DNA of 64,000 bases, from IMG/VR virus record IMGVR_UViG_3300025018_000145, positions 7,908 to 71,907 of that record; one strand, written 5' to 3'. The notes beneath the pieces are model-generated. The model had not been told where the DNA came from and did not search any database. It saw only the letters and a list, made by a program, of their open reading frames with translations. This document shows, piece after piece, positions 6,744 through 64,000 of the stretch; positions within the stretch are counted from its first letter, which is position 1, and the number at the start of each line of letters is the position of its first letter. The stretch is from a virus. Its lineage: Duplodnaviria; Caudoviricetes. A program made the position numbers and the translations under genes.

Positions 6744-7997
6744 CTAAGAAAAGAAAGACTCGAGTGTTGTTATTTCACTCTTTCTGTAATTATTTATACA
6801 CGGCTCTGAATAGGTACTATCGATAGAAGTCATAATCGATTTATTAATAAATGAGCCATCATATAGATCATCTGTTAGATACTTATTTGATAAGTAACGA
6901 ATATGATGAAGATATAGTACGTCATCATTGTAGATTGACGCAATACGATCATGCAGCTGTTCTGGTGTCGACGGTCTATAAAACGAATCGAGGTTTGTAT
7001 GATTTTGTGTGTCATATGTTGGATGAAGAAATGGAATGACACCAGCCTGAATCATCTCGATATACTTCGACGTTACCCACCCCGGCGCAATCGGAATGAT
7101 GAATGTTGAACGAACATTTCCAAATCTTCTTTGAATTTCACTTACATGAACCGAACCACGAAAACGCGCATCGCTGTTTATTATATTCTCATTCCATTGG
7201 CCGTAGATATCAATATTCTCATCGTGCTTAAGAACCCATTCGTTCAGTATATTATAACGTGATGGTTTGCCTTCATTGAGAGCGATCATTGCGTGAACAT
7301 TACGATCTGCAACCGATGTAGTTGGTTTATTATAATCCAAACAGAACATCTTTTCAACACCAGAGTATGTAGACTTTACATAATCCGTTATTAAATCTTG
7401 ATCATCAAATGATTTGAAATATTTCTTAGCATATTCAAAATCAAACTGCCCAATCGACACATTCGGGCAGCGAGTAATGTCACGGGATTGATTAAGCTTA
7501 TAGCGAGGATCGTTTATGATTTCGATGAACGGTATATTCGTACGATTAATCCATTCAATCATAGGCGTCGAATATAATTTGGTCATATCGATGACTGCAG
7601 CAGTGAGATCACGATTATTAACCTGCATAGTACGATTTGGTATCGTGGCGGACCCAATTTGCCCAATCATAAAGATTCCATAATCAATATGAATATCGTT
7701 GATTTCAAAATAACGAATCGCGTGTAGATAAAAATTCTCGCCCAATTCCGGTGATCGCGGAATTTTTACGCCGTCCCAAATATCAATGACATTGTCATAT
7801 GGGAATAGCGAATTCTTATCAACATCGGATAATCGACTATAATCGGATCGCCCAATAATATAAAATTTCTTATCAGGATTTCTATTCGCGAGCGCACGCA
7901 GAACACATGATGGTTCATTATCACCACCAATAGGTGAATAGTTTTTAGTTGAAAATTTAATTGATTTTCCTATCTTCGCAAACACAAAATTTTTCAT
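6744..7997 (-). CDS. GT-B DNA glycosyltransferase, T4 beta-glucosyltransferase-like
   Basis: The C-terminal half (TSKYIEMIQAGVIPFLHPTYDTQ...EQLHDRIASIYNDDVL) aligns by eye with the T4 BGT C-terminus (TLRVWETMASDAVMLIDEEFDTK...ELIDRVNELKHSDVL). Lies in an operon with the gp42 homologue. Confidence 0.7.
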   Translation of the reverse strand: MKNFVFAKIGKSIKFSTKNYSPIGGDNEPSCVLRALANRNPDKKFYIIGRSDYSRLSDVDKNSLFPYDNVIDIWDGVKIPRSPELGENFYLHAIRYFEINDIHIDYGIFMIGQIGSATIPNRTMQVNNRDLTAAVIDMTKLYSTPMIEWINRTNIPFIEIINDPRYKLNQSRDITRCPNVSIGQFDFEYAKKYFKSFDDQDLITDYVKSTYSGVEKMFCLDYNKPTTSVADRNVHAMIALNEGKPSRYNILNEWVLKHDENIDIYGQWNENIINSDARFRGSVHVSEIQRRFGNVRSTFIIPIAPGWVTSKYIEMIQAGVIPFLHPTYDTQNHTNLDSFYRPSTPEQLHDRIASIYNDDVLYLHHIRYLSNKYLTDDLYDGSFINKSIMTSIDSTYSEPCINNYRKSEITTLESFFS

Positions 7998-57284: not shown

Positions 57285-58151
57285 TTATTTTAGAGTATCT
57301 CTTAGTTGTTTATTTAACTTTGGCGTATATGATTCGTCGACTAAATAAATTTCACGTCTATTTTCATTCTGCTGTTCTTCAAAATCAAAGCATGAAACCG
57401 GTGAAAAATATACTTGTTCGTCTGTTGGTATAACATTGATCAATGTTTTTGTCGTCGACACAATAACTGTTGCATTTGCGCTCGATTCTTCACCACGAAT
57501 TGTGAAGTTTGTGTTACTTGAAAAGTCGCCGTTTATGTGCTGTACTATAATCGATGTATTCGTATATGAAGTGATTTCAGCGAACACTGAATTGTTTGAT
57601 GTCGATTCAATGACTTCACCTTCTTTAAAATCGCCATTAACATTTGTGATGTCAAATGATATGATCTTGTTTGTAGATGCAATATAGCTTTCTTGTGTTC
57701 GTTCATAACCCGCAATACCAACAACGCTTAACACCGGCTGCCAATATTTCTTTCGTGATCCCGGTTGTGCTTCATATGCTGATGTTGATAATACAGAATC
57801 GTCACCAACATAATTGTTTTTATAGTGAATCGTTTTACGTTTAGCATTACGCACTGATCCATATTTGTTTTTTATATATTCTTCAAATGAATCGTAGTCG
57901 AGTGGAACTTGATAATACGGGTCAATGATATCGTTCGCGTGATATATGATCCAATCAAAATCGACATCATCATAATAGTTGAATGCTAAGTTTTCAATAC
58001 GATCGTCGTATCGCAATGTGTATGTATAGAAGGCAGTGACAAAATTCTTAACACGAGAATTAAATGCAACTCTCTTAGTAATATCAATTGCGGGCGTACT
58101 TTTATAATCGACGAAGGGAAACTTTTCGAAGTATCTATTCTGTCTTGACAT
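57285..58151 (-). CDS. gp53: baseplate wedge gp53 (LysM-like)
   Basis: YFEKFP, DRIENLA..YY.D....WII..AN.I.DPY and ENRREI.L. Confidence 0.9.
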   Translation of the reverse strand: MSRQNRYFEKFPFVDYKSTPAIDITKRVAFNSRVKNFVTAFYTYTLRYDDRIENLAFNYYDDVDFDWIIYHANDIIDPYYQVPLDYDSFEEYIKNKYGSVRNAKRKTIHYKNNYVGDDSVLSTSAYEAQPGSRKKYWQPVLSVVGIAGYERTQESYIASTNKIISFDITNVNGDFKEGEVIESTSNNSVFAEITSYTNTSIIVQHINGDFSSNTNFTIRGEESSANATVIVSTTKTLINVIPTDEQVYFSPVSCFDFEEQQNENRREIYLVDESYTPKLNKQLRDTLK

Positions 58152-59418: not shown

Positions 59419-59856
59419 ATGAAAGGATTTTTTAAGCCAAAGAACCCGCATAAATATAAAGGAGATCCAACTAGAATCGTGTATCGCTCTAGTTACGAAC
59501 TGAAGTTTATGTCGTTCTGCGATTCACAGACGAATATATTACGTTGGTCATCAGAAGAATTTTTTATTCCATACCGCTCGTCAATTGATGGTAAGATACA
59601 TCGTTATTTCCCGGACTTCTGGGTTGAGAAGAAAACTGTAGACGGTGGAATCGAGATTGATGTAATCGAGGTTAAACCATCGCACGAAACACTGCAGCCA
59701 AAAATGCAGACCAAGATGTCAAAACGATATTTATATGAAGTAAAAACATGGGTTATTAATAATGATAAGTGGGCAGCCGCAAGTAAATGGTGTGAAGAAC
59801 GAAGATGGAATTTCAGAATACTAACTGAATATGAACTAGGTATTAAGAAGAGATAA
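59419..59856 (+). CDS. gp4: head completion nuclease gp4 (TnsA-like)
   Basis: KYKGDPT.I.YRSSYE, HRYFPDF, EVKP and N.DKWAAA. Confidence 0.96.
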   Translation: MKGFFKPKNPHKYKGDPTRIVYRSSYELKFMSFCDSQTNILRWSSEEFFIPYRSSIDGKIHRYFPDFWVEKKTVDGGIEIDVIEVKPSHETLQPKMQTKMSKRYLYEVKTWVINNDKWAAASKWCEERRWNFRILTEYELGIKKR

Positions 59857-60458
59857 TGACAACATATATTTTTCAACGGATTTCGAAAGAAGGAATGCAG
59901 GCTGGTATAACTCCTGGTACGATTGACGCGCGTGATTGGCTCCGCGATCGTGCATCACAAATCACTTCAGTAAATAATACGAAGTTGATGAGAGAAAGCG
60001 CGAATATGTATAGTAGATTGAGTAATTCGGATATTGGTCGCATGTTCATGTTCTTCTACGACCCAAAACATAAAAAGACACTCCCTTATTATGATCGATT
60101 TCCATTAATATTCGTAATTGATCGAAAGAAAGATGGATTTCTCGGTATGAATTTACACTACTTACCGCCTTTATTTCGTGCACGATTAATGGATGCACTA
60201 TATTCAATTGAGCGAATAGATAACATACGCAAATCGAAAAAATTGAAATTAACATATGAACTATTAAATAGCGCTAGCAGGTTTCGCTATTTCAGACCAT
60301 GTATCAAACAGTATTTAAATCAACATCGACGATCTCGGTTTCTGTATATTCCATATAATGAATGGGACATTGCGTTGATGTTACCAACAGAACGATTCGT
60401 AAAAGACAATAAACAGAATGTTTGGAACGAATCGAAAAGAATCATATTGGGAAAATAA
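59856..60458 (+). CDS. gp2: DNA end protector gp2
   Basis: YDPKHK.TLPYYDRFPL and G.NLHYLPP..RA.L. Confidence 0.96.
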   Translation: MTTYIFQRISKEGMQAGITPGTIDARDWLRDRASQITSVNNTKLMRESANMYSRLSNSDIGRMFMFFYDPKHKKTLPYYDRFPLIFVIDRKKDGFLGMNLHYLPPLFRARLMDALYSIERIDNIRKSKKLKLTYELLNSASRFRYFRPCIKQYLNQHRRSRFLYIPYNEWDIALMLPTERFVKDNKQNVWNESKRIILGK

Positions 60459-60998
60459 ATGACATTTAACGTATCATCATTCAAATCCAGTGTACGTGGG
60501 TTTCTAAGACCACATTCGTTCGAGGTATTCATTCTGCCACCGGGTTCATCTAACATTGGATCACTTAACGCATTAAATTCAATACGATTAAGAACAGAAG
60601 GAATCGCATTACCCGGTGCGGCATTTCTAACAGCTGATAACTATCGTCAATACAGTAACGGTTTAACTTATACGATTCCGTATGGGTCGAACCCACAAGA
60701 AATTATCGCAACACATACTGTTGATGACCAGGGTGTCATCATACAAATACTGTATGATTGGGTTAATGAAGTTGTAGACTTAAAGGGCGATTTTAAATAT
60801 GCACCAGCGTATTATGAAGAATACACGCGCGACATGGTTATTAATATATATGAACAATCAGGAACAAAGATAAAAACATATCGCTTAACTGGTGTATATC
60901 CAATATCATATGATCAAATTCAAATGGCGTGGGAATCAACAGATCAAATAACGAAAATACCAGTAACATATCGTTACGAATATTTCACAATCGAATAA
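60459..60998 (+). CDS. gp54: tail tube initiator gp54 (gp19 paralogue)
   Basis: Tube-fold pattern (ALPG...PY...YPIS) and position between gp2 and gp26. Confidence 0.7.
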   Translation: MTFNVSSFKSSVRGFLRPHSFEVFILPPGSSNIGSLNALNSIRLRTEGIALPGAAFLTADNYRQYSNGLTYTIPYGSNPQEIIATHTVDDQGVIIQILYDWVNEVVDLKGDFKYAPAYYEEYTRDMVINIYEQSGTKIKTYRLTGVYPISYDQIQMAWESTDQITKIPVTYRYEYFTIE

Positions 60999-61011: not shown

Positions 61012-61725
61012 ATGTCATTACCTGTAATCGTAGCACCGACATTCGAATTAACACAACCATCTACACAGAAGACATTAACATATCGTCCTTTTCTTGTGAA
61101 GGAAGAAAAGATTCTATTAATGGCTCGCGAATCGAGTGATCGAGCTGATATGTTACGTGCGATTAAACAAATCATCACGAACTGTATTCAGAGCGAAGAC
61201 TTTGACGTAAACTTGATACCATTATATGACATGGAATATATCTTCATACAATTAAGAGCGAAGTCTGTCGATAATATTGTACACTTTCATGTAAATGATT
61301 CTGACGATGAGAAGGAATACGATCTCGAATTAGATTTAAATAGTGTGAATGTTATTTTTCCAAATAAACCGCATGATGGTATTATTAAGATTGACGATCG
61401 ATATAGTATGAAGCTATTTCATCCAAATGCAGGTATTAGTGAATCATTAAAAAAAATGAATGACCCGAAAGATGTCGCGATGCAGCTTATAGTAAATTGC
61501 ATTGAGTGTGTATTCGATGAAGAGAACGTATACCCATGGAAGTCTTCAACGAATAAAGAAAAAGAGGACTTTATTGATTCGCTAAATCACGCAACCTTCG
61601 AGGCGATACAGAAGTTCTTTGATGCGTCGCCTAAAATCGAACATGTTGTGACATATAAAAATTCGTTAAATGTAGAGAAGAAAGTATACTTCCGGAACCT
61701 CGACGATTTTTTTACGTTATACTGA
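61012..61725 (+). CDS. gp26: baseplate hub assembly protein gp26
   Basis: LP....P.FEL, YRPFLVKEEKILL, YD.EYIF.QLRAKSV and FF...PK. Confidence 0.93.
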   Translation: MSLPVIVAPTFELTQPSTQKTLTYRPFLVKEEKILLMARESSDRADMLRAIKQIITNCIQSEDFDVNLIPLYDMEYIFIQLRAKSVDNIVHFHVNDSDDEKEYDLELDLNSVNVIFPNKPHDGIIKIDDRYSMKLFHPNAGISESLKKMNDPKDVAMQLIVNCIECVFDEENVYPWKSSTNKEKEDFIDSLNHATFEAIQKFFDASPKIEHVVTYKNSLNVEKKVYFRNLDDFFTLY

Positions 61726-61874
61726 GTTACACCGATTTGTTTAGTTTTTATCAACTAAACTTCAAATTAACTCAGGAATACAATTACTCACTCATGGAAA
61801 TCGAGAATATGATACCATTTGAACGCGATTTATTCTGTGAGATGATTGAACAAGAAAATAATAAGGTAAAGTAA
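61707..61874 (+). CDS. gp51: gp51-like hub assembly catalyst (no ATG at its conserved start; probable -1 frameshift extension of gp26)
   Basis: Frame LSYTDLFSFYQLNFKLTQEYNYSLMEIENMIPFERDLF matches the gp51 motif YSL.EIENM.P.ER. It is absent from the ORF track. Confidence 0.75.
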   Translation, partial: FFYVILSYTDLFSFYQLNFKLTQEYNYSLMEIENMIPFERDLFCEMIEQENNKVK

Positions 61875-61875
61875 T

Positions 61876-64000
61876 ATGCTAAAATTCATTGCAACAGCAA
61901 TCGCCGCAATATCTTCCCTAGGGAAGGATGGTGATGATACGAGCAAACCGAATGTTCATATAATTGAACAGGAGAAGAACGTTGAAGTTGCTAACCCAGT
62001 TGATGACATATTGCCAGCTAGTTTATATAATTTCGCAAAAACGATTAGCGATGAAGTGCATGTTACGAATAAACATGAATGGTATGTTGAGAATCTAAGT
62101 TCAAATGAAGAAAATCATGATAGCGACGATTTAAATCAGACAGCATTAGTACCTATACAAGTAACACCATTCTTTAATGCGCTAGGAACAGCCAGTTCTA
62201 ATTTAGCAGAATCAGCTAAGAAGTCAATTGATAACGAGAGAAGAGAAAAACTCGAGATAATGCGTGACAAAGATGAAGCGCATATCGAACGTAAGCAAGT
62301 GATGAATGATGTACTCGGTAAAATTGGTAATGTTGCTAGTAAAACGAGGGACGGGTTACTTGCTATATTAACACCATTCTTGCCGTCTGGGTTTCTATTC
62401 AGTACAGCATTTATTCTTGATAAGATAAACGATGTGTTACCGAAAGGCACGACGCTATCCGATATCACTAATACATTTGAACATATACAAACAACAGTTG
62501 CTCGCGTGGCTGTTAGTTTTGGTAAATTGCCCGGCGGTTTCTCGAGAGTATCAACTGGAGGAACGATTCGTGGATTGTTTCCTAGTACACCACTCGCAAT
62601 CCAAAATACAATGAATCTTACTTCGAAGATATCATTAGCAAACAGCCGATTCGCAAAATATATGCCATTTCTAAATAGAGCGAATTCGTTCTTTCTAATG
62701 CTATCAGGATCAACAGATACTATGATGGCACGATTAGCGAAATGGACATCAGGTCTCGGGTCTTGGTTTGCATCACGATTACGATCTGTCGCAAAGAAAT
62801 TCGTTAAGTGGATTCTTATCGTTGAAGCATTTCGCGCAATGATTAATGCATTACAGATGAAAATATTAGGTTCAATCACCGAAGAAGAATGGCATGAACG
62901 AAATCGCGAGCAAATCAATAACATCATTCGCATATTTGGTGCACCATTCTTAGTCACGGCATTATTCGCTGCTGCTGGGACCGTCGTCCCAGTATTAGGA
63001 AACCTAGGTGGCGGCGCTGCCGGATTAATCACTGGTATTATATTAGGTGATGATGTGTTTCGAATTCTTAAAATAGAAACGCTTATAAGTGGTATATATA
63101 ATTGGTTCTTTCTAGGAGACATGAGTAAATTAAAATCATACATTCCACAATTAATCAAAGAGCTTGGTGTACGTATACCAATATTAATCGCTGAATCTGT
63201 TAAAGATGCTGCAGTAAATACTGTAACTAATATATCGGATATCATAACAGGAAATCGCGAGATACGGACTGTTGATCAGGAATATGTATTAGACAAATAC
63301 GGTCAAACGTCAAATTCAACGTTAATACATAAAGCGTCAGAAGGTATTGGTACTGATGAGAGTGCTATCCTATACGCGTTTCGCAATGTAAAAACGGTGA
63401 ATGATTATAATGCGATAAAGTCGTCGTTTGAATCATCGGTTCTTCCAGATTATAATCGTAATCGTTTATTTGGAAAAATCGATACAATGGAGGATTATTT
63501 AAAGAGTGAATTGTCGTCGCGTCAGTATGAACAATTACAATCGAGAATTCAAACACAGATAACGAATAATACATTAAGTGGTTCCGATATATCGAATCCA
63601 CTAAGCACAGCTGACGTGTCATATTCGTCGATAGAAACCATTGATCGTAAGTATAATGGATTGAGCAAAGTAGCGATGATGCGTGATATCGTTGGTGATG
63701 GTTTATTCAACATAAAAGAATCAGAATCCGATTTATACGCTGTTGTGAAGAATATGACGTCCGGTGAATATGAAACAATACGAACGGAATACAAGAAACT
63801 TTATGATAAGGATTTAACTGAATCGATTCGTGAATCATTTGGTGAAAACGTATCGAATAACGTTTTCACAATATTACGTCATAATGAAACCGTGAATCGC
63901 GAATCGATAACGAATAATGCATTAAGTAGTTCCGCGAATCCACTAAGCACAGCTGACGTGACATATTCGTCGATAGAAACCGTGAATCGCGAATCGATAA
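61876..64000 (+). CDS. tape-measure-like protein (gp29 position) with annexin-like repeats; 3' truncated
   Basis: Frame is open from ATG 61876 to the window end (missed by the track). Contains amphipathic helices, a Gly-rich hydrophobic segment and a GIGTDE annexin motif. Confidence 0.7.
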   Translation, partial: MLKFIATAIAAISSLGKDGDDTSKPNVHIIEQEKNVEVANPVDDILPASLYNFAKTISDEVHVTNKHEWYVENLSSNEENHDSDDLNQTALVPIQVTPFFNALGTASSNLAESAKKSIDNERREKLEIMRDKDEAHIERKQVMNDVLGKIGNVASKTRDGLLAILTPFLPSGFLFSTAFILDKINDVLPKGTTLSDITNTFEHIQTTVARVAVSFGKLPGGFSRVSTGGTIRGLFPSTPLAIQNTMNLTSKISLANSRFAKYMPFLNRANSFFLMLSGSTDTMMARLAKWTSGLGSWFASRLRSVAKKFVKWILIVEAFRAMINALQMKILGSITEEEWHERNREQINNIIRIFGAPFLVTALFAAAGTVVPVLGNLGGGAAGLITGIILGDDVFRILKIETLISGIYNWFFLGDMSKLKSYIPQLIKELGVRIPILIAESVKDAAVNTVTNISDIITGNREIRTVDQEYVLDKYGQTSNSTLIHKASEGIGTDESAILYAFRNVKTVNDYNAIKSSFESSVLPDYNRNRLFGKIDTMEDYLKSELSSRQYEQLQSRIQTQITNNTLSGSDISNPLSTADVSYSSIETIDRKYNGLSKVAMMRDIVGDGLFNIKESESDLYAVVKNMTSGEYETIRTEYKKLYDKDLTESIRESFGENVSNNVFTILRHNETVNRESITNNALSSSANPLSTADVTYSSIETVNRESI
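63558..64000 (+). repeat. in-frame ~90-bp repeats within the tape-measure-like gene
   Basis: 63558-63639 is near-identical to 63906-63981. A 90-bp unit starts at 63886 and restarts at 63976 (ETVNRESITNNALSSSANPLSTADVTYSSI). Confidence 0.9.

Follow-up and report, generated by a model that had tools for sequence, protein, structure and literature searches.

Annexin repeats in a protein at the tape-measure position of a T4-like phage tail module

Tape measure proteins have their C-terminus at the hub end of the phage tail and are expelled into the periplasm, where their membrane segments and lysin domains act; pb2 of phage T5 is a multifunctional tape measure with both membrane- and wall-acting modules. 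In annexins, the Ca2+ ion is held by loop carbonyls together with a bidentate carboxylate, and bridges the protein to phospholipid phosphates (PMC10882027). A survey in 2014 found no annexins in viruses (Kodavali et al., PMC3894181). Single annexin domains are carried by the toxins of PVC, a phage-tail-like contractile injection system, for which a role in helping to breach target membranes has been proposed (Zhang et al. 2012, PMC3482391). Here we analyse the protein encoded at positions 61876-63999 of a 64,000-nucleotide stretch of viral DNA (positions 7,908 to 71,907 of IMG/VR record IMGVR_UViG_3300025018_000145, referred to below as the window), which stands in the tape-measure slot of a T4-like myovirus and contains one annexin repeat with a canonical Ca2+-site signature and one degenerate repeat. 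The parts of this open reading frame (ORF) that concern us first are the following, where A3 denotes an alignment of 21 homologues.

61876..63999, + strand: tape-measure-slot protein; ORF open at its 3' end, first 708 of 789 codons
62929..63075, + strand: glycine-zipper hydrophobic hairpin, residues 352-400; Kyte-Doolittle peaks up to 2.0
63271..63306, + strand: family-specific N-terminal extension of the annexin module, residues 466-477, consensus ATxEEIxxKYG; Y475 and G476 nearly invariant in A3
63307..63519, + strand: annexin repeat 1, residues 478-548, with the canonical type II Ca2+-site signature (profile match, AlphaFold 2 model, VIA)
63343..63360, + strand: GIGTDE, AB-loop (endonexin) motif of the type II Ca2+ site, residues 490-495 (read from the sequence)
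63508..63510, + strand: E545, which the alignment matches with E72 of annexin V (KSELSG), the bidentate acidic Ca2+ ligand; invariant in A3
63667..63879, + strand: annexin repeat 2, residues 598-668, degenerate, lacking both the GxGT loop and the acidic cap

An earlier note on this DNA, made from its letters alone, had described two annexin-like repeats at this place; the peptides in question lie in frame +1 of the ORF, and both profile and fold comparisons bear the description out. In a phmmer search of all PDB sequences, residues 476-708 retrieve annexins for the most part, and no other protein is among the strongest matches (annexin XII, E 1.8e-6). The profile built from A3 reaches annexin VI at 4.8e-17 and annexin A4 at 1e-16, with a single domain that spans the whole repeat (A4 residues 17-75) at an independent E-value of 2e-8. 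The Pfam annexin model PF00191, which the earlier note had put forward as a check, gives a divided answer: two homologues from the same slot score above the cutoff (P0050 with 34.5 bits and P0010 with 25.1 bits), whereas the window protein alone stays below it, at 23.7 bits against 25 (E 5e-5), by a match confined to residues 626-655 of repeat 2; repeat 1 alone scores 14.5 bits. The agreement with the family sequence model is thus found through the family profile and these two homologues. An exhaustive phmmer search of 1.84 billion representative sequences collected 57 proteins, namely 51 phage proteins of the same family and six multi-repeat proteins. Four of the six, as scanned, are unambiguous Pfam annexins (P0057 at 2.8e-65, P0040 at 4.9e-41, P0042, and P0054), and P0012 and P0051 contain nine and two GxGTDE repeats, respectively.

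The predicted structure points the same way. The AlphaFold 2 model of residues 465-687 has a mean pLDDT (predicted local distance difference test) of 80.8, with most blocks of repeat 1 above 90, and the five helices (A to E) of the repeat pack in the annexin manner over about 70 residues, helix E of repeat 1 extending to about residue 568 (nucleotide 63579). A missing HMM (hidden Markov model) or structural match would have told against the earlier note; when the C-terminal model was compared with the PDB by Foldseek, all of the top 50 matches were annexins or annexin fusion constructs, with probabilities of 0.99-1.00. In VIA comparisons, repeat 1 superimposes on domain 1 of annexin I (1bo9) with a root-mean-square deviation of 2.2 Å over 69 of 73 residues (Z 6.6), and the two repeats together (model residues 14-207) align with repeats 1-2 of annexin V/A4 (Z 7.8); in the sequence search, repeat 2 aligns to repeat 3 of annexin XII. 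The low overall TM-scores reflect the flexible, low-confidence linker between the repeats, which are not packed as in an annexin core. With the whole 708-residue model, the Foldseek E-values are weak (3.6e-3) and the strongest matches are still annexins. A search of the viral structures in BFVD found no named viral annexin and one credible match, an uncharacterised 801-residue protein of an uncultured Caudovirales phage (probability 1.0, 94 columns), which is probably a member of the same family. Taken together, the repeats are almost certainly true homologues of annexins.

The columns of A3 that are strictly invariant, among homologues with 18-75% identity to the window protein, are A487, G490, G492, D494, E495, and E545, and T493, A497, and L546 are nearly so. 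In terms of the annexin type II site, the invariant set corresponds to the motif of the AB loop plus the acidic cap (SELS). E545 aligns in the profile alignment with the SEL of annexin A4 and annexin VI. The second residue of GxGT is Ile, Leu, Met, Phe, or Ala in 20 of the 21 canonical family members and Gly in P0002; this position is hydrophobic in bacterial annexins too (Kodavali et al., PMC3894181). As judged from the alignment, the putative Ca2+-site residues of repeat 1 are under strong conservation. The distance from Thr493 to Glu545 is 51 residues, longer than the 39 residues of most family members and the 38 of canonical annexins; the extra length comes from 13 residues, including a short additional helix, that are inserted into the C-D loop in the window protein and its nearest relatives. 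The earlier note had held that both repeats match the annexin consensus, and for the Ca2+ site this is true of the first one only: the G-x-G-T-[DE] loop is present in repeat 1 and absent from repeat 2, which retains the helices; there an enlarged loop, GDGLFNIKESESD, replaces GxGT and S654 takes the position of the acidic cap.

DSSP assigns nothing but helices to the AlphaFold model of all 708 residues, in which confidence is low over the N-terminal 260 residues and improves from residue 300. The best-conserved stretch of the family, residues 308-420, comprises a helix (KWxLIxEA...), the motif LGxIxExEFHxxNKEQIN, and the glycine zipper of the hydrophobic hairpin, and the annexin module comes next, so that the repeats follow a Gly-rich hydrophobic hairpin just as the earlier note had said. 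Seven glycines of the hairpin (G355, G368, G375, G379, G383, G387, and G391) are nearly invariant in A3, and homologues give sub-cutoff Pfam matches to Gly-zipper_Omp and DUF6861. The extension that precedes repeat 1 forms a helix (residues 4-11 of the C-terminal model) within the high-confidence part of the model. Almost all family members end in the motif ...SAxPSxxTxDSFxxxxxxT, and the conserved C-terminal peptide ...TTDSFIQYGFVT is predicted to be placed in the gp27-like hub. We note that gp29 of T4 (L004:5879-7651) ends in ...TSTTAPGVFDATGVN, which has a loosely similar look to the family motif.

The position of the gene within the tail module bears on what the protein is. On the minus strand lie genes for gp6, gp25, a gp5-like hub/lysozyme protein, a gp27-like tail protein, gp53, and gp48. 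On the plus strand, the ORF is preceded by the following genes.

59419-59856, + strand: gp4
59856-60458, + strand: gp2
60459-60998, + strand: tail-tube-fold protein
61012..61725, + strand: gp26-like baseplate hub gene, the upstream neighbour (Pfam T4_baseplate PF12322, E 8e-53; phrog_150 baseplate hub, E 1e-57)
61737..61874, + strand: gp51-like ORF of 45 residues, below the default ORF length cutoff (BLASTP)

The 45-residue ORF resembles gp51, a baseplate hub assembly protein: it is 56% identical to an ORF of cyanophage S-8S55 whose record carries the note gp51, and 51% identical to the gp51-like ORF of phage phiM12 (E 2e-15 in both cases). Another neighbour, the gp53-like wedge protein (57285-58151, minus strand), has a weak, sub-cutoff Pfam match to CtaG/Cox11 in its C-terminal part (E 1.8e-4), which is probably due to chance.

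The gene order gp5-gp27-gp53-gp48 / gp4-gp2-tube-like-gp26-gp51-X is common to the window and phiM12, and the phiM12 gene in slot X is annotated as having similarity to phage tape measure proteins. Homologues of the ORF fill slot X in loci L003, L008, L009, L012/L013, and L014, and gp32 and gp59 follow on the opposite strand in L003, L012, and L014. The location within the tail tube and baseplate hub module is that of a tape measure, and so is the architecture, which is long, nearly all alpha-helical, and provided with internal hydrophobic, Gly-rich segments. Several homologues match tape-measure families of PHROGs (phrog_167 at 1.5e-8, in addition to 794, 5062, 10574, and 1538). The window protein itself matched no PHROGs family, and hhalign comparisons of its family profile with T4 gp29 and with the tape-measure-like protein of phiM12 were negative; the tape-measure identity therefore rests on position and architecture. 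Residues 1-460 retrieved only unnamed viral clusters from the ESM Atlas. From the synteny, the all-helical architecture, and the tape-measure matches of its homologues, we consider it likely that this is the tail tape-measure protein, the equivalent of gp29. The earlier description of the protein as tape-measure-like holds for the slot that the gene occupies, and finds no counterpart in the PHROG and gp29 comparisons of the window protein.

The annexin module is variably distributed within the family, whose members are typically about 710-1000 residues long. A full-length copy of repeat 1, as defined by its HMM, is present in 32 of the 51 same-family representatives, 21 of which have the canonical G-x-G-[TS]-[DN]-E, the rest having altered loops (GLATDE, LLDDDE, MTGTDE, YIGTDL, and others). 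Several family proteins also have a second repeat without the loop. Domains of the lysozyme, SLT, or M15 peptidase type follow the hairpin in same-slot homologues, and P0016 (L014:6001-9000) combines both kinds of module, an annexin repeat with GLGTDE at residue 533 and a phage lysozyme domain at residues 773-925. The region after the hairpin is a swap site for envelope-acting modules. P0050 (L012:8001-10850) has the family C-terminal motif, lacks a glycine zipper of the usual spacing, and has its annexin repeats early in the chain (residues 265-453). A tree of the conserved core took in non-homologous rows, and no conclusion on gain or loss of the module is drawn from it.

In the explanation we favour, the chain begins at its N-terminus with a long ruler of helices and continues with the glycine-zipper hairpin as a membrane segment; then come the annexin module, in which one repeat keeps its type II Ca2+ site intact and the other is degenerate, a spacer that varies, and lastly the conserved peptide at the C-terminus. 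Contraction of the tail would expel the protein into the periplasm with its C-terminal end leading. The annexin repeat would there load Ca2+ from the surrounding water, and the ion would bridge the repeat to the phosphates of anionic lipids such as phosphatidylglycerol and cardiolipin, with the hydrophobic residue of the GxGT loop, Ile491, buried in the membrane. Such lipid bridging would hold the adjoining hairpin at the cytoplasmic membrane, where the hairpin could insert and form a conduit for the DNA. Should the tape measure form a trimer, as it does in solved tails, three such sites would be available per tail, comparable to the four on an annexin core. We infer a periplasmic site of action, which appears to be favoured by the lysozyme, SLT, and M15 domains found downstream of the hairpin in homologues from the same slot. 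The earlier note had spoken of a Ca2+-triggered module, a wording that overstates the case: Ca2+ would serve as a bridge rather than as a trigger, because the periplasm of a cell in Ca2+-bearing spring or aquifer water probably always contains the ion.

We regard this explanation as a whole, from the tape measure through the lipid-docking mechanism, as a serious possibility that falls somewhat short of being probable, and would place Ca2+-dependent lipid docking during infection, as suggested by homology, at the same level. A shade more doubtful is the broadest formulation, that these are the first viral annexins and that a T4-like lineage grips the cytoplasmic membrane, and initiates the DNA channel, by means of a working Ca2+/phospholipid-binding repeat in its tape measure. 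Several observations weigh against the explanation as a whole. There are two repeats only, one of them degenerate, instead of the curved disc of four, and a single intact repeat is far short of the four-repeat annexin core. In the window protein, the 13-residue insertion separates the loop from its capping glutamate, and the Pfam score of this protein is below the cutoff. No PHROGs family was matched by it, and the profile comparisons with gp29 and the phiM12 protein were negative. A full annexin repeat is absent from 19 of the 51 representatives and about 11 carriers have altered loops; the module is therefore dispensable or replaceable. Finally, each of Ca2+ binding, lipid binding, the location in the virion, and the order of exit is an inference. 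It is poorly understood how the tape measures of contractile-tailed phages find and open the cytoplasmic membrane, and a mutable, putatively lipid-binding module beside the hairpin would provide a direct handle on the question.

Among other explanations, the one that survives best, although we consider it unlikely, makes the repeat a structural or assembly element, that is, a compact, Ca2+-stabilised helical knob in the tail tube or hub that folds, registers, or plugs the tape measure and never meets a membrane. Tape measures must accommodate folded accessory domains in the lumen of the tube, the repeat is located between the conserved hairpin and a conserved C-terminal peptide that would be in the hub by analogy with solved tails, and absence from the 19 representatives is what one expects of a non-essential decoration. 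The pattern of conservation is at odds with such a knob: the best-conserved residues are those of the Ca2+/phospholipid site and the mostly hydrophobic loop residue, whereas the helix-packing core is less conserved. In addition, the cell-wall enzyme domains that neighbour it in homologues point to a role after ejection.

Less likely again is that the repeat binds, via Ca2+, another anionic component of the envelope (lipid A phosphates in the outer leaflet of the outer membrane, the inner leaflet of that membrane, or polymers of the cell wall) and thereby anchors the tail tip or the lysin-bearing end. Annexin A5 binds the lipid A of lipopolysaccharide (reviewed in PMC10882027), and a module that is C-terminal of the hairpin, and beside lysozyme domains in some homologues, would exit early and near the wall. 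The canonical partner of the conserved type II site, however, is the phospholipid phosphate, and the repeat directly adjoins the hairpin proposed to insert into the membrane. Least probable of all is that the protein is some other ejected or hub-associated (internal or pilot) protein beside gp26 and gp51, with the true tape measure elsewhere in the genome: the negative gp29, phiM12, and PHROGs comparisons would fit, but no other long all-helical ORF with a hydrophobic core is present in the tail module of the window, where the remaining large ORFs are assigned by their matches to families of baseplate wedge or fibre proteins, and the typical family length, the family-wide conservation of the C-terminus, the constancy of the slot in six loci, and the tape-measure PHROGs of several homologues all speak against it.

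The ORF is open at its 3' end, as the earlier note had recognised: the window makes up the final 64 kb of a 71.9-kb contig, and both stop at the same position. The rest of the gene was retrieved as P0059, a protein of 789 residues on a 126.6-kb contig, which is 100% identical across all 708 residues of the window protein and adds a further 81 residues, ending in ...SAGPSRSTTDSFIQYGFVT, the C-terminal motif conserved throughout the family. Since P0059 runs on to this conserved terminus, the gene is intact and the truncation is an assembly artefact, with 81 residues absent from the window. A circular contig, with the gene resuming at the contig start, was ruled out; the contig is not circular. 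Two repeats in the DNA are found around the break and around repeat 2.

63976..64000, + strand: second copy of an exact 25-nucleotide repeat (first copy 63886-63910); repeat search, family D3
63593..63647, + strand: 55-nucleotide direct repeat (NPLSTADVSYSSIET), second copy 63935-63989; repeat search, family D1, 93% identity, spacing 342 nucleotides

The 25-nucleotide repeat at the contig end is the cause of the assembly break. Sequencing depth doubles to triples at 63864-63934, unitigs end at 63915/63916 in four runs, and the loose unitig end continues in frame as ...SAEIVNPTIV, identical to the continuation in P0059. The contig terminates within a 90-nucleotide tandem unit (63886-64000) that is flanked by the exact 25-nucleotide repeat (ETVNRESI), and the full gene in P0059 contains no copies of the unit beyond those in the window before it reaches the C-terminus. 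The 55-nucleotide repeat encodes NPLSTADV-S/T-YSSIET, and its copies bracket annexin repeat 2. A further direct-repeat pair is located at 63558-63586 and 63906-63934, the pairs being 342-348 nucleotides apart and 93% identical around repeat 2, and in the nearest homologue, P0001, repeat 2 is present and the second flanking direct repeat is absent. It looks as if the repeat 2 unit had been inserted or duplicated through recombination.

The contig is from a T4-like myovirus, with a major capsid protein 66% identical to that of Stenotrophomonas phage DLP6 and 58-59% identical to those of the phiM12 group, pelagimyophage Mosig, and Methylophilales phage Melnitz. Almost the exact nucleotide sequence of the ORF recurs in contigs from cold-spring, aquifer, and hot-spring metagenomes, and at least half of the sampled ORF words are present in eight runs from five studies. 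In the annexin-coding part (62958-63915), three of four runs compared have no differences and the fourth has one; across the 2.1 kb of the ORF, these four runs show only four single-base differences, and the samples may share one site. Seven related loci, one of them on a 150.9-kb contig, were found in IMG/VR. The repeat carriers are all metagenomic, and the annexin repeat is annotated in none of the records examined. A tblastn search of 50,697 deposited phage genomes gave no match for the whole protein, for the multi-repeat annexin P0057, or for the family member P0019; the family has no cultured member and, at the level of such sequence comparison, no deposited phage in this set has a BLAST-detectable annexin. 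Full-text literature searches likewise returned no paper linking an annexin with a phage tail or tape measure protein, in agreement with the earlier note, whose author knew of no such description in a myovirus tail protein.

Compared with eukaryotic annexins (A4, A5, VI, XII; PF00191), the phage module shares the five-helix repeat, the K/E-G-x-G-T-D-E AB loop, and the capping glutamate in ..SELS.., and differs from them in several respects. Instead of a four-repeat disc, it has one intact and one degenerate repeat, which are embedded in a 789-residue, presumably structural phage protein; the C-D loop contains the 13-residue insertion; and single-sequence Pfam scores are at or below the curated cutoff. 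Unlike the cytosolic eukaryotic annexins, the phage module would be extracytoplasmic, acting in the periplasm.

The resemblance to bacterial annexins and the annexin domains of PVC toxins lies in the presence of one or a few repeats fused to other modules, and in the strong conservation of GxGTD with a hydrophobic x. The PVC toxins, likewise, are delivered by a contractile tail device. In contrast to these cargo toxins, the phage carrier is presumably a building block of the tail, in the tape-measure slot of a true virus, and the putative target of its repeat, the bacterial envelope, differs from that of the PVC toxins. The finding extends annexins to viruses and, after the PVC toxins, provides a second link to contractile injection machines, a link that bears on the debated origin of bacterial annexins. 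If the broadest formulation given above is true, annexin repeats might owe their patchy distribution among bacteria and eukaryotes in part to transport by phages.

Like multifunctional tape measures such as the lysin-bearing ones of enterococcal phages (PMC10194240), and like the positional equivalent gp29 of T4, the protein combines a helical ruler with hydrophobic segments and accessory domains on the C-terminal side, and its relatives have lysozyme, SLT, or M15 domains at the equivalent place. Unlike gp29, to which it has no detectable sequence similarity, and unlike the lysin-bearing tape measures, whose accessory modules are enzymes, this protein carries an annexin repeat with a putative lipid-binding function. 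In sum, what is new is the accessory module of a probable tape measure, and a virus as the host of a known domain.

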